Assembly (NCBI GenBank): GCA_903893485.1 | Contig: CAITMK010000012.1 | Location: 18,708 to 82,707, forward strand | Length of the DNA: 64,000 nt | From: Candidatus Magasanikiibacteriota bacterium | GTDB taxonomy: Bacteria; Patescibacteriota; Patescibacteriia; Magasanikbacterales; 2-02-FULL-50-9b | Direction of reading: 5' to 3' | Shown here: one piece after another, positions 24,998 to 58,410 of the stretch | Position numbering within the stretch: the stretch's first letter is position 1 | Layout: each line of letters begins with the position of its first letter | Translations under genes and position numbers: made by a program | The notes under the pieces: model-generated | Databases searched by the model: none | What the model was told of the DNA's origin: nothing | What the model saw: the letters and a program-made list of their open reading frames with translations, nothing else

Positions 24998-25059
24998 TAC
25001 AGTGGATAGTACGCTGGCCTCCGAAGCTGGAAACACAGGTTCGACTCCTGTCGGGCGCA
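24988..25059 (+). tRNA. tRNA-Arg (anticodon CCG)
   Basis: Cloverleaf by eye: acceptor GCGCTCG/CGGGCGC (one T·G pair), D-arm GTAC..GTAC, anticodon loop CTCCGAA, T-arm ACAGGTTCGACTCCTGT. The 5' end overlaps the last codons of the upstream CDS. Confidence 0.75.
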
Positions 25060-25062
25060 AAT

Positions 25063-28817: not shown

Positions 28818-28839
28818 GTAAATGAAAGCTTAACCTTCA

Positions 28840-29904: not shown

Positions 29905-29908
29905 ACTC

Positions 29909-32012: not shown

Positions 32013-33436
32013 ACAACAGTTCGGCGACGAATAACCGCAAACGGCGTTTTAACTAAAATAAAAATATCCATCACCAGCGACCAATTTTCCAAGTAAAACA
32101 TGTCCAAGCGAATTTCATCTTCAAAAGTTAAATCGCTGCGACCGGAAATTTGTGCCAGACCTGTCATGCCTGGTTTTACGGCATGCACGCGGCGATCTTC
32201 GGGTGAATATTTTGCAACCTCGCGTGGCTGATGTGGGCGAGGCCCAACTAAACTCATGGTGCCGGTAAGTACGTTAAATAATTGTGGCAACTCATCGATG
32301 GACCAACGGCGGATCACCGCGCCAACTGGCGTCACGCGCGGGTCTGCCATGATTTTGTAAATCGGCCCTTCTTTGCTGTTTTGTTCCACGATTAATTTTT
32401 CTTCAACTTCAAGTGCAGCAGGGTTCGTTGCAGCGCCCCATTCGGTGCAATATTTTTGATACATCGAACGAAACTTTAATGTGCGAAATAGTTTTCCACG
32501 AAAACCAACGCGCGTGTTCTTGAAAAAAATTGGGCGGCCAGTTTCGCTGGCAACTGCAATAGCGCCGCCGATCAAAAACGGCGACGTGAGAATAATTAAA
32601 ATCAAACTTCCTAAAATATCAAACAAACGTTTTGAAACTTTCCCCCAACCATCCAGGCGCGCGCGGCGAAATTCAATGAGTGGAATTTCTTGGATGGCGG
32701 ATACACGCATGTTTGGCGCAAGTGTCGAAAATAAATCCGCCGAATATTTTAATGTAAAATGATTTTCTTCTGCGAACGCTAAAATCGTGAGTGTTTCTTC
32801 GCGACTTGCTTTTGGATTTGATAATAAAATTTCATCAACTTCATTGGCGCCATCGAGCGCTAAAATTTCTTCGCGCACCTTTTCGTTGAAAATAGGGTAG
32901 CGAGCAACAATGGTATAGCCCAAAGATTTTTGATGGTTCATGATTTCTGCCAAGCGATCCGTGATTGGGCCGGATCCCAAAATAACAATGCGGCGTGCGC
33001 CAACACCACGCGTGTAGCAATATAATTTAATTAAGCGCATGAACAAATGCACGGCAGTAACGTAAACCATGCCGACGATCCACGCAGCTAAAACAATAAA
33101 GCGCGAGTTAAAAAATTCACCGCGGAAAAAAATATAAACCGTAATTGCGGCAAGTCCAACGGTACATGCAAAAAAAATGCGAGAAATTTCGTTGGCAAAT
33201 TTGCGATTGGAATCCATGGTGTACAGGCCGTTGGTCGCAAGCACCAAAATCCACACCGGCACAACGGTAATGAGCACGCGCACAAAATCGTGGCTCGTCA
33301 TGGTGAACAAAACCGGGCGAATGCCCGTTGCCAAATGTGTAAAACGCAGCGCGTACGCCGTGATACCCGCCGCAAATAAAACCACAGCATCGAGAGGAAC
33401 TTGAATGGCGTTCAGCATGAGCTCAAATTTCTTCAT
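32009..33436 (-). CDS. undecaprenyl-phosphate sugar phosphotransferase (WbaP/bacterial sugar transferase family)
   Basis: N-terminal TM helices. C-terminal PGMTGLAQISGRSDLTFEDEIRLDMFYLENWS sugar-transferase signature. Promoter TTGACG-17-TACAAT at 33441-33470. Confidence 0.8.
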   Translation of the reverse strand: MKKFELMLNAIQVPLDAVVLFAAGITAYALRFTHLATGIRPVLFTMTSHDFVRVLITVVPVWILVLATNGLYTMDSNRKFANEISRIFFACTVGLAAITVYIFFRGEFFNSRFIVLAAWIVGMVYVTAVHLFMRLIKLYCYTRGVGARRIVILGSGPITDRLAEIMNHQKSLGYTIVARYPIFNEKVREEILALDGANEVDEILLSNPKASREETLTILAFAEENHFTLKYSADLFSTLAPNMRVSAIQEIPLIEFRRARLDGWGKVSKRLFDILGSLILIILTSPFLIGGAIAVASETGRPIFFKNTRVGFRGKLFRTLKFRSMYQKYCTEWGAATNPAALEVEEKLIVEQNSKEGPIYKIMADPRVTPVGAVIRRWSIDELPQLFNVLTGTMSLVGPRPHQPREVAKYSPEDRRVHAVKPGMTGLAQISGRSDLTFEDEIRLDMFYLENWSLVMDIFILVKTPFAVIRRRTVV

Positions 33437-33472: not shown

Positions 33473-33754
33473 TCAATTTTTTTGCGCCAATCTTACGATT
33501 TCTGGGATATCCTGTTCGGTAACGCCGCCAAGCCACAAATTTTCCGGCATGATGACCACGGTTGGACCAGTTGAACAGTGGTCAAGGCAGCCAGTTTTGG
33601 ACACGCGCACAGTTGGCGCAACGGCTTTTACCGCGGCTTTAATTTGCGCGTGCAGGTCCACGCCACCACGGGCGCCGCAACATTCGCGGCCGCCATCTTT
33701 AATATTCGTGCAGACTAAAATTAATTTGGTGAAATTTGCGGGAACGGTTTGCAT
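33473..33754 (-). CDS. thioredoxin-like [2Fe-2S] ferredoxin domain protein (93 aa)
   Basis: Cys pattern C-x9-CC ... C-x3-C in a ~90-aa protein. Confidence 0.45.
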   Translation of the reverse strand: MQTVPANFTKLILVCTNIKDGGRECCGARGGVDLHAQIKAAVKAVAPTVRVSKTGCLDHCSTGPTVVIMPENLWLGGVTEQDIPEIVRLAQKN

Positions 33755-33813
33755 ATCAAAATCAGGATTGATGAATTGTATTACAGTGTATTACAAAATG
33801 TTAGGACTGTATA

Positions 33814-34254
33814 CCACATTGACAAAACCCATTTTTTCTGGTGTAATGCGCGGGCTACGAAACCAGGACGAGTGCCCTACGGGGAGGAAAGTCCGGACAC
33901 CCTTTGCGGGGCAACCCGCATCGTCGTGGTGCTGGCTAACGGCCAGGCATTCTGCGGGGTATAAACGACGCGTCGCAAGACGCCCGCGAAAACCTTCTGA
34001 CGGAAAGTGCCACAGAGACAATTAAAGTTTTGACCTCGGTCAATTCCAAAGGTGAAAAGTGAGGTGGTGTACGGGCGCAAGCTCATGCTACACCTCTTTG
34101 CCCGGGCGCGAGTCCGTGGCAGTGGCAAACCCCACCTGGTGCAAGTGCGTATGCACGCATCGAGCGACGTAGTAATACGGCGCCAAGACAGATACTCGTC
34201 ACCGCGCGCCTCAAAACGCACGGGACAAAATCCGGCTTATATGGTTTTGTAGTG
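33814..34254 (+). ncRNA. rnpB: RNase P RNA (bacterial type A-like)
   Basis: Universally conserved P4 segments GGGAGGAAAGTCCGGAC (33883-33899) and ACAAAATCCGGCTTAT near the 3' end. 5'/3' termini can pair as P1 (ccacattgacaaaacccat / atggttttgtagtg). TGtATACC box upstream. Confidence 0.8.
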
Positions 34255-34282
34255 AAATCCGCCTTCGGGCGGATTTTGATTT
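34255..34282 (+). terminator. terminator after rnpB (aaatccgcc-ttcg-ggcggatttt)
   Basis: Perfect 8-bp stem with tetraloop and T-run. Confidence 0.75.
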
Positions 34283-34379
34283 TCCATAAAATAAAAAAAT
34301 CGCCGAGACGATTCCCGCGTGAGTCAAGCTCTCGCGAAAACCGTCCCGGACGATGGCGTGGTTGCACGCCTTGTGCGCG

Positions 34380-34832
34380 TCAGCGGTCGATGACTTGCTT
34401 CCAGCCCGGGTGCGAATTCGCCGCCGCGTCTTGGATGCTGTTGTCAGAGGCACTGTCGTGTGCCGGACCGTTGGTCTTGTTCACGATGATTTGCGGCGTA
34501 TCCGGCGGCGGGCCCTGGTTGGCCGTCAGCGCATGGTTGTTGCTCACGGGGTTGTTGACGGCGATGTGCACGCCGAGGTCGTCGCGCAGCAGCCGCGCCT
34601 TGTGGATGAACTGCGCTTCCGTCGCGCCGTCCGTGGTGATGCACGCCAGGCTTTCCGCCAGCTTCCCGCCGTGGTCCAGGTTGACCAACGCAATCGGGAT
34701 GTCGGCGACGACGCCAAGCTCCTTGTCCGAAGACGGCGGCGACTGGGCGAGCGGCGCGGCAATGGCCGTCATGGCGAGCAGGGCGCTCGTCGCGATGGTC
34801 ATCTGCAAGAAACGAATGAGCTTGTGGCCCAT
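34380..34832 (-). CDS. hypothetical secreted protein (150 aa), GC-rich cassette D
   Basis: GGAGGT Shine-Dalgarno 5 nt before the ATG. Signal peptide MGHKLIRFLQMTIATSALLAMTAIAAPLAQ. ~62% GC. Overlapping plus-strand ORFs look like GC-driven artefacts. Confidence 0.5.
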   Translation of the reverse strand: MGHKLIRFLQMTIATSALLAMTAIAAPLAQSPPSSDKELGVVADIPIALVNLDHGGKLAESLACITTDGATEAQFIHKARLLRDDLGVHIAVNNPVSNNHALTANQGPPPDTPQIIVNKTNGPAHDSASDNSIQDAAANSHPGWKQVIDR

Positions 34833-34970
34833 GGGTACCTCCAGGAAAGTTGTCACTGAGTACTCCTTAAACCGCAAAGGGCCGGGTTAAGGTTGCGGCA
34901 ACGCACCGCATGAAAGACAATATATCAGTCTGCGGGGTAGTCGTCAAGTATGTTATACTGTGGAATATTT

Positions 34971-35477
34971 ATGAAGGAGCTCTTTGACAAAAATAATCCA
35001 AGCACACTTGTGAGCGAAAATTTTTCGTGGGATGAATTCGAAGCCCGGCATGTTGATTCTGTTCGGCCGCCTGTAAAACTTTCAAAACACGAGCTTGCCG
35101 ATCTTGAAGCGCAATCCGAGAGCTTAGAAACTGAAGAAGCAAAATTAGTTGCTCAAATTAAGGATCCACATTTTGTGCAAAACATGGTGGAACGTGAAAT
35201 TGAATCAGCCACCAAAGAAATTGCAGTCGTGGTCGCTGAAATGGAAAAAATAAAAAAGCAGCAATCAATTTTAGGACGTTTATTAAAACGTGATTTGCCA
35301 CCAGAATATGAACGCCTCGAGGAACATTTTTTTCATTTGCAAAGTAAACTTATTTTGCTAGATGGCAAACGATTACACCCCGATGTGGTGCATGTGGGAA
35401 CCATGCGCGCACTTAAATCGGTACGCGAAAAAATCGCACGTATTGCGCTGCTCAAAAAAGAAATCGAACACTTTTAG
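34971..35477 (+). CDS. hypothetical coiled-coil protein (168 aa)
   Basis: TGtTATACTG box 10 nt upstream of the ATG, so likely leaderless. Confidence 0.5.
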   Translation: MKELFDKNNPSTLVSENFSWDEFEARHVDSVRPPVKLSKHELADLEAQSESLETEEAKLVAQIKDPHFVQNMVEREIESATKEIAVVVAEMEKIKKQQSILGRLLKRDLPPEYERLEEHFFHLQSKLILLDGKRLHPDVVHVGTMRALKSVREKIARIALLKKEIEHF

Positions 35478-36430
35478 ATAAGTCCCAATGCGCCGCGAAC
35501 CTCGGACATTGTTTTTTGTGCGCGAGCACTTGCAGCGGCGCGGCCCATTTCCAAAACTTCGGTAATGCGCGCGTCGGTAATTTCTTCGCGGCGAGCGCGA
35601 AAATCTGCAAAATAATTTGCAATCAAATCAGCGAGCGTATCTTTCAGATCTACATTTTTTAACGTGCCGGCTGCAAATTCTGCAGACAATTTTTGGTGCG
35701 TACCATTGGCATCAAAAAGTTGTGCGAGTCCTAACAAATTTTGTACGCCAACTTCGTCGGTCACGGCTTTGCGCATTTTATCGTGAATCGAATCTGAGTC
35801 GTCGGTCAAATAAATACATGATTTGTCGCCATGTGATTTTGACATTTTTTTTGTTGGTTCAGCGAGCGACATAACGCGTGGCGTTTGGGTGAGCAGCGCT
35901 TGTGGTTCGGGGAAGAGTACACTAAATTTATTGTTAAACTTTTTTGCAATCACGCGTGCAAGTTCCACATGCTGCACCTGATCTTCGCCAACAGGAATTT
36001 GATGTGGTTTGTATAATAAAATATCCGCGGCCATGAGCACTGGATATGTGTACAAGCCGGCGTTAATATTTTCTGCGTGGCGCGCTGCCTTATCTTTAAA
36101 TTGCGTCATTTTATCGAGCTCGGCCAGGGGAGTCAGCGTTAAGAAAATCCAACAAAGTTCGGAATGTTCTGGCACATGCGACTGCACAAATAAATTTGAT
36201 TTTGTAGGATCAATGCCAAGCGCCAAAAGATCGCGTACCAAATTGCGAACCATTTTTTGTTTTTGTGCCGGGTCAAAATCAACCGTAAGCGAATGCAAAT
36301 CTGGAATAAAATAAAAACGTTCAAGGCCTGGATCGGCTTGCATGTCCACCCAATTTTTAACCGCGCCCAAATAATTACCAATATGCATGCTGCCGGTTGG
36401 CTGGATTCCAGAAATGATGACGTTTTTCAT
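35474..36430 (-). CDS. trpS: tryptophan--tRNA ligase
   Basis: GIQPTGSMHIGNY HIGH motif and KMSKS motif. The ORF-track 620-aa reading is an upstream extension antisense to cassette E. Confidence 0.85.
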   Translation of the reverse strand: MKNVIISGIQPTGSMHIGNYLGAVKNWVDMQADPGLERFYFIPDLHSLTVDFDPAQKQKMVRNLVRDLLALGIDPTKSNLFVQSHVPEHSELCWIFLTLTPLAELDKMTQFKDKAARHAENINAGLYTYPVLMAADILLYKPHQIPVGEDQVQHVELARVIAKKFNNKFSVLFPEPQALLTQTPRVMSLAEPTKKMSKSHGDKSCIYLTDDSDSIHDKMRKAVTDEVGVQNLLGLAQLFDANGTHQKLSAEFAAGTLKNVDLKDTLADLIANYFADFRARREEITDARITEVLEMGRAAASARAQKTMSEVRGALGLI

Positions 36431-36461
36431 AGTAGGAGGATTATAGCGGATGCGGCGGATC

Positions 36462-36490
36462 TTGACAAAACCGCTAAAACATGGTATGCT
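36462..36490 (+). promoter_or_regulatory. strong sigma70-like promoter gatcTTGACAAAA-17-TGgTATGCT for cassette E
   Basis: Consensus -35, 17-nt spacer, extended -10, followed by a ~95-nt leader with a hairpin. Confidence 0.55.
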
Positions 36491-36583
36491 GCTCGGTCTA
36501 GTTGAAAAGGGCTTTCCTAGCGGAAAGATTAGGCTTGTGGCAGATAAGTATTTGCTGCAAAACCCTCGTGATCGGAGGACAAG

Positions 36584-37291
36584 ATGAATGAGAAAAACTC
36601 GGAAAAGCGGTACGTTGTCGCGGCTTTGTTGCGGCAGGTTTTGGGCCTCGGGCCGAATGACCTGACGGCAAAAATGCTGCTGGCGACGGCCATGACGCAG
36701 ACGCAAGCCGCAGTGTTCGCCGAGGCGGTGCATCCGAATTTCCCGCGTTGGGCTGGCCGCTCGACCCGCGATTTCGCGGACTCGTGTGGTCCGGACGCGC
36801 ATTTCAAGGGCGAGACGGACCTGATGAAGGTCCTGGTCTCGGAGGACCTGAATAAGGCCATGCTGATCGACATCGGCTGGCGGCTGGGCACGGTGATCGT
36901 TCCGATGCCGGGCAAGCGCGAGCGGGAGAGCCTGCACGACCTGTTCAAGCACTTCATGGTCACGGACGAAGAGCTCGATCGGCCGAACATCGCTGCGATG
37001 GCGGCGGCTGGTGCTCAGGTTCCCCGCGATCGTGCGACTCCGCCGGCGCCGACCAAGGCGAGCCAAGTGGCACGCGCCAATCAGGCGGTCGTGCGCAAGG
37101 ACATTCTCGCGGGCAAGCACATGCCGTCGGGCGATGCTGGCTTTGGCGGTGCGTCCAACGAGCCGCGCGGCGATCATCGCGGTCGGCGTGCGCGTCTCGA
37201 AGAAGAGCAGCGCATGCGTCAGCGCGGCAAGCCGGCTGAAGGCACGGGCAAGCACTCGGCGAAGCGCAAGCAGGGCGGCGGTCGCGGTTAG
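36584..37291 (+). CDS. hypothetical protein (235 aa) with basic disordered C-terminal tail, GC-rich cassette E
   Basis: GGAGGA Shine-Dalgarno 5 nt upstream. ~66% GC. C-terminal ~70 aa are Arg/Lys/Gly-rich. Confidence 0.5.
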   Translation: MNEKNSEKRYVVAALLRQVLGLGPNDLTAKMLLATAMTQTQAAVFAEAVHPNFPRWAGRSTRDFADSCGPDAHFKGETDLMKVLVSEDLNKAMLIDIGWRLGTVIVPMPGKRERESLHDLFKHFMVTDEELDRPNIAAMAAAGAQVPRDRATPPAPTKASQVARANQAVVRKDILAGKHMPSGDAGFGGASNEPRGDHRGRRARLEEEQRMRQRGKPAEGTGKHSAKRKQGGGRG

Positions 37292-37312
37292 CGCAAACGT
37301 GCGCGGCCAATC

Positions 37313-37378
37313 GGCGTACAACATAGAGACTCGCACAGAAATTTCGTGCTTGAGACTCTGGTTGTACGCTGTTTTTTA
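37313..37378 (+). terminator. long-hairpin intrinsic terminator after cassette E
   Basis: gtacaacatagagactc...gagactctggttgtac stem followed by gctgtttttt. Confidence 0.6.
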
Positions 37379-40816: not shown

Positions 40817-40903
40817 TGGTGCCGCGGGCGGGACTTGAACCCGCACACTCTTGCGAGCGCTAGCACCTGAAGCTAGTGTGTCTGCCAATTTCACCACCGC
40901 GGC
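40817..40903 (-). tRNA. tRNA-Leu (anticodon CAG), long variable arm
   Basis: Acceptor GCCGCGG/CCGCGGC, anticodon stem CTAGC/GCTAG with loop TTCAGGT, T-arm GCGGGTTCAAGTCCCGC, encoded CCA. Confidence 0.8.
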
Positions 40904-40967: not shown

Positions 40968-42683
40968 TCACTTCTTAACCTGTTTGGTCGAAATAAACCA
41001 ACTGGTGATATTTTGAAAACGTTCGTCAGCGTTAACACCTGGGGGAACCGTAACGCCTTGGACTTTTTGGGCCACAAAATATTCGTATACTGGTTGGTAC
41101 AAAAATATAGCTGGGGTATCGGCAACAATGCGGTTCGAAATTTTCTTTAATAAAGTGGCGCGTGTGGCGGGGGCGGGCTCAGAAAGTAATGATTGGAGCC
41201 ATGCGTCAACTTCGCTCATTTGGTAACGCGCATAGTTTACGCCATCATCGGCGCTGCCCGTGGAATTCCAGTAAGGATAGGCGCTATTTGGCGTTTCGTA
41301 GGATTGGCCAGCAAGTAGCATATCCTGAGTGGCTGCGTCTTGTGGCGCATTTTCTAAATCAACGGTGCGTGTGGCAACGGGCAATCCAATTGCTTTTAAA
41401 TTTTCAACAATTTGATTCGCTGCATTTACAAGCGCAGCTGAACTTGGAACGCCCAAAGACAGCGGCGTTGTGGGTAGTTTAACATTAGCTTTTTTTAGCA
41501 GCGCCAACGCATTGGCGGTGTTCATATCCGGAAGTGCTGCTAAGTCGCCACCAATAATTGAAGCCGGAAAAGGTTCACGCGCTGGCACACCATTACTTTT
41601 TAAAGCATTTTTAACAATTGCGGTGCGATCGATGGCAAGTGCAATTGCATCGCGCAAATCCGGGTTTTTAAATAATGGATTTTTTGATGGATTGAAAAAT
41701 AAACTTACAACGGTTGGTGGCGTAATTTCGTAGCGTTTTACGTCGTGCTTAAAAATGGTGTCATCAGCGCTTGGATCGAAAGCGGTAAATGCGTCCACGG
41801 TGCGACTGCGAAATAAATCCGCGGCAGTATCAGCGTCGGGCGCAAAACGAAACGTAAGCTCTTCAATGTACGCCGGTTTTGGTTTGAAATCCGAAAACAC
41901 ATCAAACGTCATGCTTTGTAAAAAGCCACCCGCATCCGCAGTTGCGCTTTCGAATTGAAACGGTCCAGATCCAACGGGTTTAAGATTTAATGAATCGGTT
42001 CGCATGTGCGTTGGGTCAACATTTTTCCAAATATGTTCTGGGATGATGCCTACATGCAAAAGCGCAGGTAAATCTGGCATGCTATGCGCGACTGAAATTT
42101 GTACGGTACCATCGGCAGCGGCAACCGCGGTAATTTTTTGCGCCGCGGGCTGCCATGGGCTGCCAACCGCGGTGTTTTGCATTGCTTGAATGGTAAATAA
42201 AACATCTTGCGCCGTAATTGCAGCACCATCGTGCCATTCATGATCGCCAAGCGTAATAGTTGCGCGCGTTAAGGTGCTATTAAATTTGCACGTTGCAAGC
42301 GCAGGGCCAGCATCGGCGCACAAAGGCAAAAATAAAACGTTGGTGAGCGACAGGTCAATGTCTGTTGCGGCAAAAAGAGGATTAATATTTTGCGGCTCGC
42401 CAACGAGCGCTTCTTTAAAAGTGCCGCCAGTGGTTGGCACCGTAACCATATTAAATCGTTGAAATGACCAAAAAAGGCCAATCACTGAAATAATGGCAAG
42501 TGCTGATGCGCCGGAAAAAACTAGTCGCTCCCATTTGCTGAGAAACATGTCCAAATGGGCAAGCTGTTGGCGCGAAGGGAAAAATTTTTCATGGCGCGCA
42601 TGAAAAACAGAGCGGTCAAGACGCGTCATACGCTGCCGCACAAAGGTATCGTAAATTCGTCGTCCTTCTGAAAGAAGGCTCAT
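40968..42683 (-). CDS. ABC transporter substrate-binding protein, family 5 (Opp/Dpp-like), membrane-anchored
   Basis: N-terminal TM anchor LVFSGASALAIISVIGLFW followed by an SBP_bac_5-like domain. Start uncertain (42716, 42683 or 42629). Confidence 0.55.
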   Translation of the reverse strand: MSLLSEGRRIYDTFVRQRMTRLDRSVFHARHEKFFPSRQQLAHLDMFLSKWERLVFSGASALAIISVIGLFWSFQRFNMVTVPTTGGTFKEALVGEPQNINPLFAATDIDLSLTNVLFLPLCADAGPALATCKFNSTLTRATITLGDHEWHDGAAITAQDVLFTIQAMQNTAVGSPWQPAAQKITAVAAADGTVQISVAHSMPDLPALLHVGIIPEHIWKNVDPTHMRTDSLNLKPVGSGPFQFESATADAGGFLQSMTFDVFSDFKPKPAYIEELTFRFAPDADTAADLFRSRTVDAFTAFDPSADDTIFKHDVKRYEITPPTVVSLFFNPSKNPLFKNPDLRDAIALAIDRTAIVKNALKSNGVPAREPFPASIIGGDLAALPDMNTANALALLKKANVKLPTTPLSLGVPSSAALVNAANQIVENLKAIGLPVATRTVDLENAPQDAATQDMLLAGQSYETPNSAYPYWNSTGSADDGVNYARYQMSEVDAWLQSLLSEPAPATRATLLKKISNRIVADTPAIFLYQPVYEYFVAQKVQGVTVPPGVNADERFQNITSWFISTKQVKK

Positions 42684-42693
42684 ACGAAAAAAA

Positions 42694-42912
42694 TTACTTG
42701 ATAATGAAGTTTGCAACCGCGGTTACAAAGTACAAAACAGCGATTACAATAGTTGCGCGGAACAAAATTTTGTCCACACCACGCTTGGTTGAGTACACAT
42801 TACTTGAGCCACCAAAAGCAGCCCCAAGACCAGTGCCTTTCTGCTGAAGCAAAATTACTGCAATCAGCGCAATCGAAATAAGAATTTGGATGATGTTTAA
42901 TGCGAGTTTCAT
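42694..42912 (-). CDS. secG: preprotein translocase subunit SecG
   Basis: 72 aa with two TM helices and the LLQQKGTGLGAAFGG signature. Promoter TTGACA-18-TACAGT upstream. Confidence 0.8.
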   Translation of the reverse strand: MKLALNIIQILISIALIAVILLQQKGTGLGAAFGGSSNVYSTKRGVDKILFRATIVIAVLYFVTAVANFIIK

Positions 42913-42984
42913 AGCCCATACTGTATCAAAAGGGTCCCGCGTATGTCAAGCATGTGATATACTGAGCGCAACATTCTTTGACCT

Positions 42985-43725
42985 ATGCAAGAAACTGTTT
43001 TAGTACAAATTCCCGGGCAGCCATGGTGGAAACGCTGGTGGGGAATTCTTATCATTTTGATTTTAGGCACCGGCACGATCTTTACTTTGTGGTTCGGGGC
43101 ACTTGTTTATTCAAACGTAAAGATGATTCGCTCCGGCGCACTCAAACCGCTGAGTAGTTATAATTCAGATTTTACCGGCAGCGGCGCGGCAGCTGGTACG
43201 GCAAGCAAAGGCGCACAATTAATTCGCCCAGAAAATGCAACCATGGGCAAGGGCGATCATACCATTGTTGAATTTGGTGATTTTGAATGTCCATTTACTG
43301 CCAAAGAATTTCCAGTTATCCGTCCGCTCATGGAAAAGGTGTTGGGAGTGAAATTTGTATTTCGAAATTTTCCGCTCACCACGATTCATACACACGCATA
43401 TAATGTAGCGCTTGCAGGCACCTGTGCCAAAGCGCAAGGGAAATTTTGGGAATATCATGATCAGGTTTTTTTGAATCAAACTGATTTGACTGATACGGCG
43501 CTCGCACATTATGCGCAAACCGCGGGTTTGGATACTGATAAATTTGCAACGTGTTTTAGTGACAAAACTTATAAAGACGAAGTTGCACGTGACGCGCAAG
43601 ATGGCTATGCGCTTGGGGTTCGTGGCACGCCAACATTTTTCATTGATGGTTTCAAAGTTGAAGGCGCAATTCCAACCGATGCGTGGACCGTAATTTTGGG
43701 CAAACTTGGAATCTCGGTTAATTAA
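42985..43725 (+). CDS. DsbA-like thioredoxin-fold protein with N-terminal membrane anchor; active-site motif reads CPFT
   Basis: TM segment ILIILILGTGTIFTLWFGALV. FGDFECPFTAKEF sits at the position of the DsbA CxxC motif. TGaTATACTG box upstream. Confidence 0.5.
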   Translation: MQETVLVQIPGQPWWKRWWGILIILILGTGTIFTLWFGALVYSNVKMIRSGALKPLSSYNSDFTGSGAAAGTASKGAQLIRPENATMGKGDHTIVEFGDFECPFTAKEFPVIRPLMEKVLGVKFVFRNFPLTTIHTHAYNVALAGTCAKAQGKFWEYHDQVFLNQTDLTDTALAHYAQTAGLDTDKFATCFSDKTYKDEVARDAQDGYALGVRGTPTFFIDGFKVEGAIPTDAWTVILGKLGISVN

Positions 43726-43726
43726 T

Positions 43727-46318
43727 ATGAAACAGCTGCTGCAAAAACTTGGGATCATGGTAAGTTTTGCAGCGGCAGTTTTTTTTCCGGTTGCACGGCC
43801 GGTGTTTGCTGCAACATCTAATTGTTGTTTATATCAACCAAATACTGCGGCACCACAATGGTTAAATGATTTGGGTGCAAGTGCAAATGTGGTGACGAAA
43901 CTTCCAGCATCAGGAAAGTGTGACGCACCATCCGAGGTCGTATCAATTTCAGCGTTGAAAGAATTTTATACGGGGGACGTTTTAACCAATGACGCGGCAA
44001 CTTGCTCAAGTGCCAGCGGTAACGAAGTCAAATTGTCTCAGGCAAGTAATGCGCCAATCCAATGTTGCATGCTGCAGAGTAGTGATTCAAAAACAGTGGC
44101 ATGCGTTCCAAAAAAAGCAGGGGATGGTGCGACAAGTTGTCTTACTGCCACGGTTTCGCAAATTAAATCTGGCATGTCAATTGTTCAGACCACAAATACT
44201 TGTGACTCTCAAGTGCCATGTCAAAATTTAACACTTGCGCAAACGGCGCAAACCTTGAATAGTGGTGCACAAAATCCTGCGCCTGCTGCGGGTGCTGCAG
44301 CAGATGGGGCAAATGCGCCAACACCTCCCTGGACCAAAACGGATTGTTTGTTAGAAAAAGATGCGGGCGGCGCAACACATAACATGTGGTTGCCACCAGC
44401 AAATGATGCAACTGCGACAACAGGAAATTATTGTTACGTAAAACCAATCCCGGTTAATTTGGAAATTCCATTTGGCGGGCAGATTTCAACAGCAACGGGG
44501 CTTCCACAATATATTAACGCGGCATACAAATATGCAATCGGTATTGCGGTCATGGCAGCGGTGCTCATGTTTATGTACGGGGGGTTTTTGTGGATGTTTT
44601 CTGGTGTTTCAAGTCAGATAAGTCAGGCTAAGACGGTGATGCTAACTTCTATTACTGGATTAACATTGGTTTTTGGTGCATATATTATTTTAAATACCAT
44701 TGATCCGTCGCTCATTAATTTGCAAGCGCCGCCGATTCATGCAATTAGGCCAGATGTTTTAGTGACCGCAGATAAATTAGCGACCTGTGATCCAAGTGCA
44801 GAAAATAGCTGCGGGCCTTCTAAGTATTGCGAGCCAACCATGACGGGTGTGGAAAATGCTTGTAACCGACAGATGATGGCTTTTGGTGGCGCGGTGTTCG
44901 GAAGTGCGGCGATTGCTGCTGCAGCTCCATTTGCGCTCGCTGCAGGCGCAACAGCACTTGCAAATGCTGGTGAAAAAATAGCTGCAGATGGGATGGGTTT
45001 GATAATAAAAAATGCCGCCAAAAGCGCCGCGGTTAATTATTTTAAGGGGCAAGCCGTTGAAACAGTGGGAAGTAAAATTACCGATGCCATTGGGCCGGCT
45101 GTTTTTGTAACACTTGGGTTGGCGTACGTAAATTATGAAATGGCACCAAAAGATGTGGAAGGATATTGCGTTGATTTAAATCACGATAAAATCGTGGGAC
45201 AAATTTGCGCGGGCGATGCTGATTGTCAATCAAATAAATGTCTGCAAACCTCAAAAAGTTCATGCTCAACCGTAAAAAGAGGTATTTGTGTGAACGGCGA
45301 TTTACGTGATCCGTGTCCGATTGAAGTGACTGAACAAACTAAAAAGTATGCTTGCCTAAATGGCGTCACTTGCGTCGATAACGAACATGGATCAAGTAGA
45401 TTCGGAATTGGATTTTGTTCCGACGGATCTCATTTAGGAATGCCATGCAACGATAAAGTTGCGTGTAAATCATTTGCTGATGGATTGAATTTGATGTGTG
45501 CTGGCGGATATTGTCGACAAAAAGAGTATTATGAGAAAGACGGAACTCTTACTGATGTAGCCGGAGGTAATCCGCGTTGTATTATTCCGTCAGATTGTAC
45601 CGGTGATGATTATACTAAGCTTAATGCGTCTCAGCATTTGGGGCAGGCACTGGCCAGCGGTAGAACAACTTACGCCGGTTGTTTAAAAAAAGGTGATCCT
45701 GAATCTGGGCTGCCAGCACGTTTTTTGGTGCCAGTTATGAATTATGAAGTACGTGCTGCATATCTTGCAGAACTCAGTTCTTCAGGGATCTGCACAACCG
45801 CGGCACCCTTTTTTGTTAATGCGGCTGGGAAAAAAACAGCAAACGTGTGCTACGTTAATATTTATCAAAGCAAAAAAACAGCAAGTCCTCCAGCCAAGGC
45901 TGAAGCGGAAAATAAAACAGTTTTAGACGCAATAAGTGCAAAATATGGAGCAAATAGTATGGGCTCTGATTTTGCAGCGGGTATTGTTTTTAATAAAGTT
46001 GGTTGTGGAATTGATAAAGATCAAATTAACCACGCGGTTATTAATGGTACACCTATTTTTGATACATCAGGTGATTGTGTCATTGATGCTGGTTCGGTTC
46101 TCTCGCAAAATTTGGCATTAGTAAATGGCGTGGGAGTCGTCAGGGGATATTGTTCGGATCAAGTCGGCGGAAAAAATGGTGAAAGTTATGTTTGGACGCA
46201 GACAGAACTTGGACAATACCTTATGTATGTACACGCTGATGATGCAAATTCTGGATGGGTAAAGACGCCAGATCTGACCAATTTAAGCAACACATACGCA
46301 GGCACCGTGACGCAGTAA
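43727..46318 (+). CDS. large secreted cysteine-rich protein (~865 aa) with a central pair of TM helices (VirB2/TrbC-pilin-like hairpin?)
   Basis: Signal peptide, then >50 Cys in both extracytoplasmic halves. The central hydrophobic hairpin is YAIGIAVMAAVLMFMYGGFLWMFSG...TGLTLVFGAYIILN. Confidence 0.5.
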   Translation: MKQLLQKLGIMVSFAAAVFFPVARPVFAATSNCCLYQPNTAAPQWLNDLGASANVVTKLPASGKCDAPSEVVSISALKEFYTGDVLTNDAATCSSASGNEVKLSQASNAPIQCCMLQSSDSKTVACVPKKAGDGATSCLTATVSQIKSGMSIVQTTNTCDSQVPCQNLTLAQTAQTLNSGAQNPAPAAGAAADGANAPTPPWTKTDCLLEKDAGGATHNMWLPPANDATATTGNYCYVKPIPVNLEIPFGGQISTATGLPQYINAAYKYAIGIAVMAAVLMFMYGGFLWMFSGVSSQISQAKTVMLTSITGLTLVFGAYIILNTIDPSLINLQAPPIHAIRPDVLVTADKLATCDPSAENSCGPSKYCEPTMTGVENACNRQMMAFGGAVFGSAAIAAAAPFALAAGATALANAGEKIAADGMGLIIKNAAKSAAVNYFKGQAVETVGSKITDAIGPAVFVTLGLAYVNYEMAPKDVEGYCVDLNHDKIVGQICAGDADCQSNKCLQTSKSSCSTVKRGICVNGDLRDPCPIEVTEQTKKYACLNGVTCVDNEHGSSRFGIGFCSDGSHLGMPCNDKVACKSFADGLNLMCAGGYCRQKEYYEKDGTLTDVAGGNPRCIIPSDCTGDDYTKLNASQHLGQALASGRTTYAGCLKKGDPESGLPARFLVPVMNYEVRAAYLAELSSSGICTTAAPFFVNAAGKKTANVCYVNIYQSKKTASPPAKAEAENKTVLDAISAKYGANSMGSDFAAGIVFNKVGCGIDKDQINHAVINGTPIFDTSGDCVIDAGSVLSQNLALVNGVGVVRGYCSDQVGGKNGESYVWTQTELGQYLMYVHADDANSGWVKTPDLTNLSNTYAGTVTQ

Positions 46319-46339
46319 TTAACTAGCTGCAGCGCGCTC

Positions 46340-46368
46340 TTGAACAATATTGACATCCGTGGTATCCT
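46340..46368 (+). promoter_or_regulatory. uvrA promoter TTGAAC-17-TGgTATCCT flanked by TTGAACAA / TTGTTCAA inverted repeats
   Basis: CTTGAACAATATT at 46339-46351 and CTTGTTCAAAATATT at 46384-46398 bracket the promoter and start codon. Confidence 0.4.
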
Positions 46369-46399
46369 CTGAGGCATTGTATTTCTTGTTCAAAATATT

Positions 46400-49237
46400 A
46401 TGCCACGACCTAAAGAAACCGGGGGAGAAAAGCTCATCGTTCGCGGATGCCGCGTGCACAATTTAAAAAATGTTTCCGTTGAAATTCCAAAAAATTCTTT
46501 AACCGTAATTACGGGTTTATCTGGTTCGGGCAAGTCATCGCTCGCGTTCGATACAATTTATGCCGAAGGCCAACGTCGTTACGCCGAAAGTTTGTCGAGC
46601 TATGCGCGTCAATTCATGGGCATGCAAGACAAGCCAGACGTTGATGAAATGAAAGGCTTGTCTCCAACGATTGCGATTGATCAAAAAACCGCAGCGCTGA
46701 ATCCACGTTCAACCGTTGGTACGGTTGCTGAAATTTATGACCACTTGCGTTTGCTTTTTGCACGCATCGGCAAGCAACATTGCCCGGAATGTGGTGGCGC
46801 CTCACGCGAATTTTCGCGCGGCCAAATCGTCGAAGAAATGCGTCGCATGGCGCGCGATGGGGAATTATATATTTTGGCGCCCGTATATAAGGATGAAGCA
46901 ATCACTGATCATGTTTTGTACTCAGCCATGGAAAAGGCAGAGGTTGAAATGGTGCGCGTTGACGGCATGTTTATTCGCAAAGGTGAAGTGATGCAATTGC
47001 ATTTATCACCAGAAACACCACACACGATTGAATTTATTTGTGGCCGCATTGAAGATGTTAAAAAAGCAGATATTTCTGGCGCAGTTACCAAAGCACTTGA
47101 ATGGGGAAATGGTTTTTTGATTGCCGTGTCACTCGAAACTGGCGCGGAAGAAATTTTTTCAACGGAACGTTTGTGTTCAAATTGTGGAAAACGGTTGCCG
47201 CAACTTGAGCCTGGATTTTTTAGTTTTAATTCGCCACACGGCGCATGTCCACGATGTACTGGTCTTGGTATCACGCTCGATGTTGATCCGGATTTGGTAA
47301 TTCCAAACAATCGTTTGACGCTTGCCGAAGGTGCGATTCAACCATGGACGCGCATTACGGGCAATCAGCAGTACTACCAAAAACTATTGTCAGCTGTTGC
47401 AGCGGTGCACGGATTTTCAACCGAAGAAGCGGTTGCAAACTTGCCAAAAAAAGCACTCGATATTTTGTTATACGGCACAGGCCAACAAATTTATTCAGTT
47501 GAAGACAAGCCGGTTGTGTTTGAGGGTATCGTTGCAAATTTAACGCAACGTCACACCGAAACTACCTCAGATTATATCCGTAAAGAAATCGAAGGCTACA
47601 TGCGTGAACGCATTTGTCCGGTGTGTACGGGCCGTCGTTTGCGCGCAGAAGCGCTTGCGGTTACAATTTTGGACAAAACGATTGCCGAATACACCGCATT
47701 TTCGATCGAAGAAGCGATTGATGTGTTTGGCGCACTTGCCGCAGATAAAAAATCACCATTCACCGAACGCGAACAATTAATTGCAGCGCCCGTGGTGCGC
47801 GAAATTATTAAACGCTTGCAAGATTTGGCACGCGTTGGTTTGGAATATATCACCATCGATCGCTCAATGAATACGTTGTCTGGTGGTGAAGCGCAGCGTG
47901 TACGTTTATCAACGCAGCTTTCATCGGCGCTCACCGGCGTGATTTATATTTTGGATGAACCTTCGATCGGTTTACATCCAACTGACACACAAAAATTAAT
48001 CGACACATTAAAATCACTTCGCGACATTGGTAACACGGTTATCGTTGTTGAACACGACGAAGCAATGATGCAGCAAGCAGATTATGTGATTGATGTTGGC
48101 CCAGGCGCGGGCCGTTACGGCGGCGAAATTATGGCAGCAGGTACATTAAAAGATGTTTTGAAATGCAAAGATTCTTTGACCGCACAATATTTGTCCGGCA
48201 AGCGCAGCATTGAAGTGCCAAAAAAATTGCACAAAGGCACGGGCAAAAATATTACCATCAAAGGTGCAACCGCATTTAATTTGCGCAACATCGATGTCTC
48301 AATTCCACTTGGTAAATTTGTTTGTGTGACCGGTGTTTCAGGTTCGGGTAAATCAACACTTATCATCGACATTTTGGGCAAGGCTTTGGCGAAACATTTT
48401 TTCCGCGCAAAAGATGAACCAGGTGCACACAAATCAATCACTGGTTTGGAACACATCGACAAAGTTATTACGATTGATCAATCACCAATTGGTCGCACAC
48501 CGCGTTCAAATCCTGCAACATACACCAGCGTGTTCACCGCGATCCGCGATTTGTACACCGAGCAGCCAGAAGCAAAAATGCGTGGCTACGATGCGGGTAA
48601 ATTTTCTTTCAACGTGAAAGGCGGCGGCCGTTGTGAAGCATGTAGCGGTGAAGGGTACGTGCGCATCCCAATGCAATTTTTGGCGGACGTATATGTTGAA
48701 TGTGATGAATGTCACGGCAAACGTTATAACGCAGAAGCGCTCGACATTCATTATCGTGGTAAACATATCGCCGACGTTTTGGCGATGACGGTTGATGAAG
48801 CGCGTCAGTTTTTTCACGACGTTCCAGGCATTGCAGATAAGCTCGAAATTTTGTTTGATGTGGGTTTAGGTTATTTGCAACTTGGCCAGCCAGCGACAAC
48901 GCTTTCAGGTGGTGAAGCGCAGCGTGTGAAACTTGCAACAGAACTTTCGCGTCGCGCAACGGGTAAAACGTTATACATTTTGGATGAACCAACAACGGGT
49001 TTGCACTTCGAAGATATCAAACGCCTCCTTCACGTTCTTCAAAAATTAGTTGAAAAAGGAAATTCACTCTTGGTAATTGAGCATAATACTGATATCATTA
49101 AGTCATCAGATTGGGTAATTGATTTGGGCCCTGGTGGCGGCAAACATGGCGGCCAGGTAGTTGCAGAGGGCGCACCAAAAGATGTTGCCAAAATTAAAGG
49201 CAGCCCAACAGGATTACAATTAAAAGCGGTTTTATGA
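46400..49237 (+). CDS. uvrA: excinuclease ABC subunit A
   Basis: Two ABC modules ([10 protein letters not shown] and [10 protein letters not shown]) with zinc-finger Cys pairs; 945 aa. Confidence 0.9.
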
Positions 49238-51820: not shown

Positions 51821-54193
51821 CTAAAATTTATACATTGAAATCTTAGCCACATTAATAAGTCCTTTCATAAAGTCTGACTTATACTGCTGAAGCGTTTTAA
51901 TTGCGCGCGCAATTTCAAGTGGATCATTTTTTTGAACAGGCGCTTCGGTCATAGTTACTTTGTCATCTTTCACTTTGGTAACAATTTGATTTCCCGCAAC
52001 GCCGATGTAAGTCGAAGACTTGAAATCAATTGCGTATTGCAATGGATCGCCGCCAGCAAGCGGAAGAATTACTAAAGAATCTGGTTGACTAATCTTAAAG
52101 ACTAAACGGGCACCATCAAATGAAAGCAGCTCTCGCTCAGAATGCTTTTGAAGAATTGGCGGTAATGGAATTTCAGTGGTTACGAAATTTTTTAGGTCAA
52201 CTTGTGCATAGGTATTGCCATCACTCATGACTGCGGTATCCCCATATAGTTTAATTGTTCTGATCTGTCCGTAAAAAGGGTACCCCAGTTCTTTGCCCGT
52301 ATTCATGTCGAGCACATGCAGCGCCGGTGCGTTTGTGGTGGTATCAAAAAGTGCCCACGCAATATAATGAGAACCGCCCACCACTGTTGTCAGCATTTGA
52401 TTTTCTCCTACATTATCCGATTGTAGCTGCTTAACGAGCTTACCGGTTTTTGTATTCCAAGCGCTATATGCCGTAATGCCACTTTTTGAATGAGTTTCTA
52501 ATATTAATGATTGATATTCGGCATGCACGGTAAAGCTTAAAAGATCTGCCATGTTGGCTGCGGTGATTTTTTGTACGACCGTATCTTTTTTTGTGGCAAA
52601 ATCGTACCAATGTACCTCGCCGGTTGTTATTTTTTTAGCGGTTACCACACGAAACCATGCGAGGCCGGTTGGACCAACACTCCAAGGTTTCGTGGAATTA
52701 AGTTGCGGCATCCCGATTGTTGGAATTGTAAAATTCTTACCGGTACTTATTTTATGTACAATGATTGATTGAGTGGAAGTTACTCCGCCAAAGGCATTCG
52801 CTATGAGCGCGCCACCTGCACTAGCGACTGTCCCCATTAGTTTATTAAAAACATCGGGATGGGTTTTCAAGTAATCATTTGCGGCCGCTTGAGTTTTAAT
52901 ACTTTTTGGAACCGTTGCACTAAGTTTTTGTAAGCCGCTGGTAAGCGTATTAAAAAACTTTGTAGTATCTTTTGCCGAGACCAGTGGTACGTTTGCAGCG
53001 ATCACATCATTGGCTACATCAAAATCCCCGTACTCTGCGATTGTCCCTTTGGGACCTGGTGGAACAGTCCACAATGAAACAGGTAAACTTGAAGCCCCGG
53101 GAATATCGCTGGTCTGCTGAAGTTTTTGTAGCGTCGCATCATCAATGCTGTTGTCACATTGAATCGTTTTGTATCGAAGGCCATTTGAGTCTGCCCAATA
53201 GATATATGGACCGGTTAGAACCGCATGACTTGCATTTTCAATGCCATCAGCCTTAGTAAAATTTGTAGGACAAGACATCTGCGTTGACTCGTTGAAGAAA
53301 TTATATACAGAACCTTGTTTCCATAGCAGGCCAGAATCACCTGAAAGAAAATATGAAGCTTTCGCGTCATTAATTACAACAGGAGCAATGGTTTTGGTAT
53401 CCATGGCGACTCGGTAATAACCATTATTCAAGTACAATGGATTTTCGACGTAGAATGATGACTTATCTGCCATGGATAAGAATTTTAAAACACCCTCTGT
53501 CTGTATGAATGCCGTATAATCAATTGTGGTCGCTGCGGTATCGACAAATCGGCGAAATACGATTGTGTGATTATTTATATCGCTCGCTGCGATATAATCA
53601 GGCCCGATAACAAAATTTGTATTGCCCGCTTGATCTACCACGTCAACATCAGGATCTTGTAGAAAATCAGCAACACTTTGCGTCTTATTTTGCGCAACAT
53701 CAAGGACTTCATACGTTTGGGTGTCCGTACTATAGACTGCAAACTTTCCATCTACGGATGCAGCAACCTCACCCAAAAGAGTATCTGATGATTTTGCGAT
53801 AAGTTGCGAGACTTTTTTACTTGTAAAATCGTATTGATATATGCCGGATGTTGCATCTTTGCTTCCCCAAATGACGGTGTTGTTTGTAATCGCTGCGTTT
53901 GAGAGCTCGTATAGCGGATCTGAAATTGGCGCAAAACTACCGGTGCCTACATCGGTCATCATGAGTTGGCCATCTGGATGAGTTGAAACAAATGGGGATT
54001 GGCCGCTAGGACTTGTGAACCAAACAACATGTGAACCAAATGCAGCCCAATCGTTTGCAGGGTCCTGTTGAAATCCACTTTGCGTTCCGTAGCCAGCAAC
54101 CGGAGTTGCAGTAGTTGCGGCAATTGCGGATGCCGTTGGCAATAATAATGAAATAACGGTGAAGAGCGAAACGAAAGAGCTTTTTTTAAACAT
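51821..54193 (-). CDS. hypothetical large secreted protein (790 aa)
   Basis: Signal peptide MFKKSSFVSLFTVISLLLPTASAIAA. Repetitive beta-rich composition. Confidence 0.5.
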   Translation of the reverse strand: MFKKSSFVSLFTVISLLLPTASAIAATTATPVAGYGTQSGFQQDPANDWAAFGSHVVWFTSPSGQSPFVSTHPDGQLMMTDVGTGSFAPISDPLYELSNAAITNNTVIWGSKDATSGIYQYDFTSKKVSQLIAKSSDTLLGEVAASVDGKFAVYSTDTQTYEVLDVAQNKTQSVADFLQDPDVDVVDQAGNTNFVIGPDYIAASDINNHTIVFRRFVDTAATTIDYTAFIQTEGVLKFLSMADKSSFYVENPLYLNNGYYRVAMDTKTIAPVVINDAKASYFLSGDSGLLWKQGSVYNFFNESTQMSCPTNFTKADGIENASHAVLTGPYIYWADSNGLRYKTIQCDNSIDDATLQKLQQTSDIPGASSLPVSLWTVPPGPKGTIAEYGDFDVANDVIAANVPLVSAKDTTKFFNTLTSGLQKLSATVPKSIKTQAAANDYLKTHPDVFNKLMGTVASAGGALIANAFGGVTSTQSIIVHKISTGKNFTIPTIGMPQLNSTKPWSVGPTGLAWFRVVTAKKITTGEVHWYDFATKKDTVVQKITAANMADLLSFTVHAEYQSLILETHSKSGITAYSAWNTKTGKLVKQLQSDNVGENQMLTTVVGGSHYIAWALFDTTTNAPALHVLDMNTGKELGYPFYGQIRTIKLYGDTAVMSDGNTYAQVDLKNFVTTEIPLPPILQKHSERELLSFDGARLVFKISQPDSLVILPLAGGDPLQYAIDFKSSTYIGVAGNQIVTKVKDDKVTMTEAPVQKNDPLEIARAIKTLQQYKSDFMKGLINVAKISMYKF

Positions 54194-58336: not shown

Positions 58337-58410
58337 GGGCCAGTAGCTCAGTTGGTGAGAGCACGGTGCTTATAACGCCGGGGTCCTGGGTTCGAGTCCC
58401 AGCTGGCCTA
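58337..58410 (+). tRNA. tRNA-Ile (anticodon UAU)
   Basis: Acceptor GGGCCAG/CTGGCCT (G1·U72), D-arm GCTCAGTTGGTGAGAGC, anticodon stem CGGTG/CGCCG with loop CTTATAA, T-arm CTGGGTTCGAGTCCCAG. CCA not encoded. Confidence 0.7.

Follow-up and report, generated by a model that had tools for sequence, protein, structure and literature searches.

A one-cysteine DsbA-like protein and a large cysteine-rich pilin-hairpin protein, probably a surface-protein folding module of Candidate Phyla Radiation bacteria

Introduction

In Actinomyces, the membrane-bound protein MdbA is required for the folding of pilins before the pilus is assembled (PMC5478893). In F-type type IV secretion systems (T4SSs), the isomerase TrbB occurs with the cysteine-rich proteins TraN, TraU, and TraH, of which TraN has 22 cysteines (PMC11315126), and both TrbB and TraF are named as putative DsbC homologues in a statement that the same paper cites from Elton et al. 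2005. Among Patescibacteria, VirB2-like pilins and VirB4 occur widely (PMC12102498), and the general description of thioredoxin-fold enzymes with a Cxx[S/T] motif fits a monothiol chemistry with a hydroxyl residue (PMC2757866). Here, two adjacent open reading frames (ORFs), ORF A and ORF B, are described from a 64,000-nucleotide stretch of contig CAITMK010000012.1 of a Candidatus Magasanikiibacteriota bacterium, a member of the Candidate Phyla Radiation (CPR); the whole stretch is called the window below. ORF A encodes a membrane-anchored DsbA-like protein with a single active-site cysteine and ORF B a large cysteine-rich protein with a pilin-type hairpin. Both are genuine genes, and together they probably constitute a surface-protein folding module, which is a variation on known themes and no new kind of system.

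For CPR bacteria, which rely on host-cell contact, few surface proteins have been characterised. The gene pair recurs in many related genomes, whose records stem largely from groundwater and sediment samples (as read from the record names). Directly supported are the identities of the domains, the conservation of the active-site motif and of the cysteines, and the conservation of the gene order. This comparative signal is clear and apparently undescribed, and we infer from it the functional link between the two genes and their chemistry. In the limited collection of literature that was searched, no description was found of the cysteine-rich fusion class in CPR bacteria, of its link to DsbA, or of CPR DsbA proteins.

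The one-cysteine active site of ORF A

ORF A (42985..43725, plus strand, 246 amino acids (aa)) matches the Pfam domains Thioredoxin_4 (PF13462) and DSBA (PF01323) with E values of 5e-20 and 6.6e-20 and with scores of 72.8 and 72.1 bits against cut-offs of 23.2 and 25.6, which places it in this family by profile. Its sole N-terminal hydrophobic helix is a predicted signal anchor at aa 17-42 (43033..43110), with K16 R17 before it and a Kyte-Doolittle hydropathy of 2.15, and by the positive-inside rule the thioredoxin domain would lie outside the cell. The first-pass annotation had called this gene a membrane-anchored DsbA-like protein with a CPFT active site, and the single anchor, the DSBA/Thioredoxin_4 domain, and the codons TGT CCA TTT ACT bear this out. 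Among solved structures, the profile of ORF A comes nearest to DsbA-like proteins of the BdbD/MdbA/ScsC type: the best matches are 3gyk, 4pwo/4pwp (deposited as 'DsbA', and presumably Corynebacterium diphtheriae MdbA), and BdbD 3eu3, with E values of 1e-18 to 3e-26, and DsbC was matched weakly (E about 1e-6). The same annotation had started from the premise that organisms of this kind usually lack oxidative-folding proteins. That premise did not hold, as CPR bacteria are rich in DsbA-like proteins: 6965 matches at E<=1e-3 were obtained among the 8000 candidates that were scored, many of them from named CPR bacteria.

The active site reads C102-P-F-T105 (43288..43299) in place of a catalytic CxxC dithiol. 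Its closest orthologues carry CPx[S/T], so that the N-terminal cysteine is kept and a serine or threonine occupies the resolving position across relatives, as in monothiol CxxS/T proteins. Among the 17 closest homologues, CPx[S/T] is found in 12, several of which are named Candidatus Magasanikbacteria, and CPFC in the remaining ones, namely P0009 and four longer, non-orthologous proteins. The best 120 homologues comprise 68 CxxC, 41 xxxS, and 11 CxxT forms and one with glycine, whose protein has lost the first cysteine too; 51 of the 52 non-cysteine residues at position 105 are serine or threonine. In these homologues the serine codon is always TCN and the threonine codon always ACN, which fits the path TGY>TCN>ACN.

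These variants were conserved together with the rest of the catalytic apparatus. In alignment A3, which holds 68 homologues with 33-61% identity to ORF A, Cys102, His135, Cys147, Cys190, and T215-P216-T217 are invariant (68/68), in CxxC and CxxS/T forms alike. Cys147 (43423-43425) and Cys190 (43552-43554) lie in a helical insert (43423..43554) and probably form a structural disulfide. The loop G214-T-P-T-F218 (43624..43638) is the predicted cis-Pro loop, and a GTPT[FWY] motif was also found in the linked loci described below. As the nucleophile, the cis-Pro loop, and the probable disulfide have been kept and position 105 varies only between cysteine, serine, and threonine, the pattern indicates a predicted working monothiol site that is under selection and not in decay. 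In a crude neighbour-joining tree, the S/T forms are spread over three or four clusters at least, interspersed with CxxC forms, which suggests that the second cysteine was lost repeatedly, in several branches.

A sequencing error at the CxxT motif can be rejected. ACT is two substitutions away from TGY, which excludes a single-base error; the identical protein is present on 8 public contigs, and orthologues have S or T at this position. The homologue check that the first-pass annotation had proposed for the CxxT variant therefore came out in favour of a real motif. Two further candidates were discarded: selenocysteine, because codon 105 is ACT and there is no TGA, and membership in the Rcas_1661 thioredoxin-like (seleno)lipoprotein family (NCBIfam NF041057), which scored 73.3 bits against a cut-off of 190 and covered only the C-terminal half. 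It was also observed that a glutamate lies three residues past the active-site S/T in 74% of monothiol vs 17% of CxxC forms (C-P-[FY]-[ST]-x-x-E; window 43297-43311, ORF A aa 105-109), and this glutamate may be a co-adapted residue.

ORF B, an exported protein with 38 cysteines

ORF B (43727..46318, plus strand) follows directly. A TTG start at 43706 gives 870 aa and overlaps ORF A, and an ATG at 43727 gives 863 aa; the latter is likely the true start and matches the public gene calls. The length of 870 aa in the first-pass annotation thus stems from a mechanically extended ORF. Its statement that the two genes are co-oriented and abut holds, except that the gap between the TAA stop of ORF A (43723-43725) and the ATG is 1 nt and not 2 nt. 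Similarly, the neighbour is indeed large and cysteine-rich, with cysteine making up 4.4% of its residues vs 0.89% in the other 48 listed ORFs of the window (two spurious ones included), but the number of cysteines is 38 and not above 50.

The protein can be divided into six parts. A predicted signal peptide (aa 1-29, 43727..43813), recognised by its composition and by its hydropathy over aa 4-29, contains no cysteine and ends at PVFA, followed by ATS. The N-terminal ectodomain (aa 30-256, 43814..44494) has 12 cysteines including two CC pairs, as delineated in alignments A1 and A4, and ends in a conserved PWTKxEC...WxPP...GNYC. It is followed by a cysteine-free two-helix membrane hairpin of the VirB2/TrbC type (aa 257-325, 44495..44701) with the short loop SGVSSQISQAK, and by an outside segment (aa 326-385, 44702..44881) with four cysteines in the arrangement CDP..C..C..C. 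Next comes a hydrophobic, Ala/Gly-rich segment without cysteine (aa 386-475, 44882..45151), delimited by hydropathy and composition, and finally the C-terminal ectodomain with 22 cysteines (aa 476-863, 45152..46315).

The cysteines are hence split 12 + 4 + 22 over three outside segments, with an even number in each predicted segment. No CxxC or CxxCH motif is present in ORF B, which makes disulfides likelier than metal sites; binding of metal or haem is accordingly unlikely. The signal peptide and the even numbers predict that ORF B is exported, in keeping with the earlier suggestion that the large protein is not cytoplasmic. Two other large proteins of the window with signal-peptide-like N-termini are nearly cysteine-free, namely 2105-3640 (plus strand, 0 cysteines in 511 aa) and 51821-54193 (minus strand, 2 cysteines in 790 aa); the cysteine-richness is therefore a trait of ORF B and not of the organism's exported proteins at large.

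Conservation of the cysteines was read from alignments A1 and A4. Across five ORF B orthologues at 32-37% identity, 28 cysteine columns are invariant. C354, C362, C368, and C379, the four cysteines behind the hairpin, are invariant in A1 and A4 and also appear in the consensus of 63 diverse relatives (A5), and remoter members of the superfamily span the equivalent profile positions. The C-terminal domain has 22 or 24 cysteines in 13/13 representatives of the ORF B family. Positional orthologues are 637-918 aa long, and since the 637-aa form (L003/P0125) lacks the N-terminal ectodomain, this domain is accessory.

The AlphaFold2 model of full-length ORF B is mediocre, with a predicted local distance difference test (pLDDT) score of 61.6, and places the helices of the hairpin at aa 259-291 and 296-325. 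For aa 31-170, pLDDT is mostly 74-88 per 10-residue block, falling to 50-54 at aa 81-100, and confidence is low for aa 382-475 (below 50 in aa 386-475). The C-terminal domain was modelled better (pLDDT 71.6, predicted template modelling score 0.74). In a Foldseek search of solved structures, nothing resembled the full-length or the C-domain model below E=1. The Ala/Gly-rich segment is most hydrophobic at aa 386-412 and possibly forms another membrane hairpin, the loop of which would be cytoplasmic; hhalign (probability 0.05) rejected it as a copy of the pilin hairpin.

The pilin-hairpin family in CPR bacteria

The central hairpin had been likened to VirB2/TrbC in the first-pass annotation, and this likeness was confirmed. 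Although aa 257-325 of ORF B score 26.5 bits against Pfam PF18895 (T4SS_pilin), just below the cut-off of 26.6, its positional orthologues pass that cut-off at 26.9-47.4 bits. Moreover, 63/63 diverse relatives (those of alignment A5) match PF18895 (E<=0.01; best E 9.8e-28) and 11/63 also PF04956 (TrbC/VirB2), which makes the hairpin, by profile, a genuine domain of the VirB2 superfamily.

An exhaustive HMMER profile search with ORF B returned 20,560 representatives at E<=1e-3, 5,064 at E<=1e-10, and 16 at E<=1e-30. The full architecture of 814-907 aa is restricted to about 12 clusters (P0121-P0132), which are Magasanikbacteria where named and one of which is the 637-aa form without the N-terminal domain. 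Other family matches have the core alone, i.e. a short cysteine motif, the hairpin, and the four-cysteine CDP..C..C..C. Cysteine content is at least 3% in 136 of 151 pilin-hairpin sequences (the best 150 representatives and P0121), with a median of 5.6%. Proteins that combine the pilin domain with many cysteines thus make up a very large class in CPR bacteria. A word-index homologue search with ORF B found one protein only, both times, and missed ORF B itself because the representative of its cluster is a 42-aa fragment.

Within this family the hairpin is combined with various outward-facing domains. An SLT lytic transglycosylase domain was detected in 6/63 relatives; one cluster (P0134) has four tandem hairpins together with it, and the protein at L102 (2702-5014) joins a cysteine-rich domain and the hairpin to Peptidase_M15_4. 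The hairpin looks like a general membrane anchor, or T4SS-associated anchor, for such domains. The 79 metagenome loci that were collected held 102 pilin-domain ORFs, many of them as tandem arrays. ORF B itself departs from a typical small pilin: its hairpin is preceded by 227 aa (counted from the end of the signal peptide) and followed by 538 aa. No T4SS genes accompany it in the window, and its flanks are secG and uvrA in all lineages.

Conservation of the gene pair

ORF A and ORF B are part of a conserved block. The divergent secG (42694..42912, minus strand; PF03840 on identical public contigs) forms its left edge, and the co-oriented uvrA (46400..49237, plus strand; UvrA Pfam domains at orthologous loci, phmmer block mapping) its right edge. 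In full, the genes for RNaseJ, SBP_bac_5, and SecG point to the left, and those for DsbA, the pilin-domain protein, and UvrA to the right, in turn followed by RluD and Gmk where these are present. The block occurs in Magasanikbacteria, Uhrbacteria, and further Patescibacteria, and most related loci have SecG upstream of DsbA. The pilin-domain protein of the block ranges from 259 to 918 aa and from 12 to 48 cysteines and has unrelated C-terminal domains, and it always contains cysteines. In 12/14 related loci the spacing from DsbA to pilin lies between an 11-nt overlap and 49 nt; the exceptions are a gap of 85 nt (L012) and a locus in which three genes of pyruvate:ferredoxin oxidoreductase (POR) stand between the two (L088). 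The window otherwise carries ordinary housekeeping genes, and a promoter and terminator scan of 42600-46500 gave the same counts as shuffled sequence.

S/T variants of DsbA are concentrated in the copies linked to a pilin gene. In the first sample, 10/14 pilin-linked DsbAs are CxxS/T and 4/14 CxxC, and the other CPR DsbA-like genes are CxxC in 17/18 cases and CxxT in 1/18 (L090). Fisher's exact test gives p=1.4e-4 for loci that are not phylogenetically independent; as they are related by descent, this value overstates the association. All S/T variants seen but one have a pilin gene in the block, and the copies of the block without a pilin gene (L092, L016, and L032) are CxxC in 3/3, with uvrA directly after DsbA in L092. 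In 8/49 of the sampled pilin loci that extend 800 bp or more upstream, the pilin gene directly follows a DsbA-like gene. In two of these eight (L102 and L106) the surroundings differ: the pair is flanked by a beta-propeller protein and YibE/F, and a CDSC DsbA gene overlaps the gene for a 733-770-aa protein made of a cysteine-rich domain, the hairpin, and Peptidase_M15_4. This second context is the best evidence for a functional association beyond inherited gene order.

Some loci of the sample differ in ways that deserve mention in their own right. In L088 (5001-10762), L016 (5956-12661), and L032 (292-7026), inserted POR genes separate the SecG-linked DsbA gene from uvrA; in L088 the pilin gene lies between the genes for the POR alpha and beta subunits, and in L016 and L032 there is no pilin gene and DsbA is CPVC. 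L090 (1879-7755) holds three DsbA-like paralogues (CPAC, CPFT, and CPYC) within 6 kb and no pilin neighbour, which shows that several DsbA paralogues can share one CPR genome. L093 (1-1566) includes, near its Uhrbacteria copy of the block, the end of a protein of 1417 aa that has VWA and SpaA-type (Gram-positive pilin) domains. In L094 (4248-5753; CPR genome GCA_043806935.1), a gene for a CcdA/DsbD_TM membrane protein is found directly upstream of a CxxC DsbA-like gene, and its product could be an electron-transfer partner for a CPR DsbA.

Proposed function and alternatives

It is proposed, with a probability of about one half, that ORF A is a monothiol disulfide isomerase or folding helper for the hairpin-anchored surface protein ORF B. 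Protein disulfide isomerase mutants with a CxxS motif keep isomerase activity and lose oxidase activity. ORF A cannot run the DsbA oxidase cycle, predictably, because there is no resolving cysteine to release the substrate, and since a one-cysteine enzyme cannot be a classical oxidase, an isomerase or holdase is the sensible reading, as the first-pass annotation had already reasoned from the motif. ORF B, with about 19 predicted disulfides, would be a natural client for proof-reading.

The two genes would be co-transcribed and would form an extracytoplasmic module of a Magasanikbacteria-type CPR bacterium. ORF B would be exported by Sec, with its signal peptide cleaved, and held in the cytoplasmic membrane by its VirB2-like hairpin and possibly by the second hydrophobic hairpin, while its three outside segments would be stabilised by about 19 disulfides. 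ORF A would be tethered at the same membrane face, where the thiolate of Cys102 could attack wrongly paired disulfides in the emerging ORF B and form a transient mixed disulfide, which a cysteine of the substrate would then resolve, amounting to isomerisation or proof-reading. Such a monothiol chemistry would require no DsbD-like recycling and no supply of reductant. ORF B itself would most likely be a surface adhesin or host-contact protein and not a classical thin pilus subunit. We infer this scheme, i.e. the topology, the co-transcription, the enzyme–substrate relationship, the isomerase chemistry, and the adhesin role, from the comparison of sequences.

Several observations weigh against this proposal, and most of them feed the alternative that survives best, which is nevertheless unlikely: that the adjacency is inherited gene order, with ORF A a general housekeeping thioredoxin-fold protein beside secG and ORF B one of many clients or unrelated. 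Nearly all linked loci belong to one orthologous, vertically inherited block that is conserved as a whole across lineages and are not independent observations, so that adjacency supports a functional link only moderately. The functionally unrelated uvrA is packed equally tightly downstream, and compact spacing is thus not specific for such a link. The block persists in the three copies without a pilin gene, and 41/49 (about 84%) of the sampled pilin-domain loci have no adjacent DsbA. In L008, L010, L037, L093, L108, and L114, the same DsbA lies ahead of a pilin gene in its CxxC form, so the one-cysteine state is not required for the pairing, and the CPFT paralogue of L090 occurs without a pilin neighbour. 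A dedicated pair, as the first-pass annotation had envisaged, therefore stands only in part: the pairing is conserved in many related genomes, but given the housekeeping block and the equally close uvrA, adjacency alone is no proof of a dedicated partnership, and given the CxxC forms the pairing is not peculiar to the one-cysteine state. In addition, the structure models are only moderately confident, and no second or CxxC DsbA, VKOR, or DsbB was found in the window, so that no oxidase is seen there.

Against inherited order alone speak, however, the CDSC type of DsbA whose gene overlaps a cysteine-rich pilin gene in an unrelated neighbourhood (L102/L106), and the concentration of S/T variants in pilin-linked copies. 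A CPR genome would have 1-3 DsbA-like genes among roughly 800-1000 genes, and on this rough estimate an upstream DsbA in 8/49 pilin loci is far above chance. A general oxidase, furthermore, could not afford to lose its resolving cysteine.

Decidedly unlikely is a second alternative, in which ORF A is no catalyst: as a covalent holdase or a chaperone of assembly, it would retain or escort ORF B until assembly through a long-lived mixed disulfide of Cys102, as ERp44 does, or would act mainly by binding it without redox chemistry, like TraF of the F plasmid. Escherichia coli DsbA mutants without the resolving cysteine accumulate mixed disulfides, which counts for it, as does the predicted anchoring of ORF A and ORF B at the same membrane face. 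TraF of the F-type T4SS offers a precedent, as it functions in pilus extension with a thioredoxin fold that has no CxxC (PMC11315126). Yet the 28 invariant, paired cysteines of the orthologues and the even number in each outside segment of ORF B leave no obvious spare cysteine, and the even counts argue against a permanent disulfide between the two proteins. Cys102 and the S/T hydroxyl are strictly kept, which speaks against a role without any redox chemistry.

That ORF B is a true polymerising T4SS pilus or tip subunit, with a VirB4-type machine elsewhere in the genome and ORF A as maturation factor, is improbable. In its favour are the membership of the hairpin in PF18895/PF04956, the wide occurrence of VirB2-like pilins and VirB4 in Patescibacteria noted above, and the relatives in which the hairpin is fused to VirB1-like wall hydrolases (SLT in 6/63, Peptidase_M15_4 in L102). 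The first-pass annotation had proposed a look for T4SS or pilus ATPases nearby, and a Pfam sweep of the remaining long ORFs revealed no VirB4, VirD4, PilB, or other pilus or T4SS genes in the window. In every lineage the gene belongs to a housekeeping block, the long stretches before and after the hairpin would be hard to fit into a VirB2-type helical filament, and the second hydrophobic segment suggests a permanently membrane-embedded protein. Finally, although no other oxidase is visible in the window and intermediates of this kind occur in Grx, GPx, and other monothiol enzymes with a thioredoxin fold (PMC2757866), it is very improbable that ORF A still makes disulfides by non-classical chemistry, through a sulfenic acid on Cys102 or a mixed disulfide with a small-molecule thiol, as there are no linked partner or cofactor genes and the groundwater and sediment habitats of its relatives are presumably oxygen-poor and hold little oxidant.

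Returning to the proposed isomerase, a wider reading can be offered quite tentatively: Magasanikbacteria and Uhrbacteria may possess an undescribed surface system in which VirB2-like hairpins no longer build thin pili but hold in the membrane large ectodomains (adhesins or wall hydrolases) that evolve fast and are knotted by disulfides, and in which a dedicated monothiol DsbA, whose resolving cysteine was repeatedly lost, serves as a recycling-free isomerase. If this were true, it would be the first natural one-cysteine DsbA with a defined client and a case of disulfide proof-reading independent of DsbC/DsbD in monoderm cells. If the link between the two genes is real, it would show how cells without a periplasm or DsbC/DsbD proof-read proteins with many disulfides, provide a natural substrate-trapping DsbA for experiments, and caution against taking every PF18895 match as a T4SS pilus subunit. 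Proteins that join such a hairpin of the conjugative-pilin type to disulfide-rich ectodomains also form a very large CPR class, with over 20,000 cluster representatives that share the hairpin.

Other features of the window

A bacterial RNase P RNA of class A was found at full length at 33856-34255 (plus strand, 125.5 bits). The ORFs 33549-34025 and 34252-34890 (about 4% cysteine) overlap or abut it and are probably spurious. Among the tRNAs, tRNA-Ile with the anticodon UAU (58337-58410, plus strand) represents an uncommon way of reading AUA; tRNA-Arg(CCG) at 24987-25060 and tRNA-Leu(CAG) at 40817-40903 (minus strand) are also present. A surface-glycan or envelope cluster at 25106-33436 (minus strand) encodes DUF11 and DUF4012 proteins, three GT4 glycosyltransferases, and a Bac_transf priming transferase. 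In the ORF at 35474-37336 (minus strand; 620 aa, GTG start), a class I (Trp/Tyr) tRNA synthetase domain spans only aa 305-569. Several other ORFs overlap this one, GC content is at its highest in the window here (0.51-0.54), and an over-extended start may explain its N-terminal extension.

Comparison with known systems

By profile, ORF A shares its fold family with DsbA proteins of the BdbD/MdbA type (Bacillus subtilis BdbD 3eu3, 4pwo/4pwp, and Actinomyces oris MdbA), and like these it is predicted to face outward from a membrane anchor and has a Thr-cisPro loop. Those proteins, however, are CxxC enzymes that are re-oxidised by VKOR or BdbC, whereas the resolving position of ORF A is threonine (serine in relatives), and unlike the sortase pilins served by MdbA the candidate client here is a VirB2-hairpin protein.

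With the F-type T4SS the locus has in common a thioredoxin-fold helper, sometimes without an intact CxxC, beside unusually cysteine-rich components of T4SS type. ORF A and TrbB/TraF are nevertheless not homologues at the level of the subfamily, ORF A being BdbD/MdbA-like; TraF has lost both cysteines, while ORF A keeps the nucleophile, and there is no T4SS cluster in the window. The patescibacterial VirB2-like pilins (PF18895; PMC12102498) have the same hairpin domain and form a CPR-wide, highly variable family that often occurs in arrays. ORF B is set apart from them by its length of 863 aa, its three disulfide-rich ectodomains, and its additional hydrophobic helices, and by its position in a housekeeping block and not near virB4.

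Like the monothiol CxxS/T proteins (monothiol glutaredoxins, GPx, yeast Eug1p, and ERp44), ORF A has an N-terminal cysteine and a hydroxyl at the resolving position (PMC2757866). Its scaffold, in contrast, is of the DsbA type with a helical insert, and it is a bacterial protein, predicted to be extracytoplasmic and membrane-tethered, in which no glutathione system is implicated.

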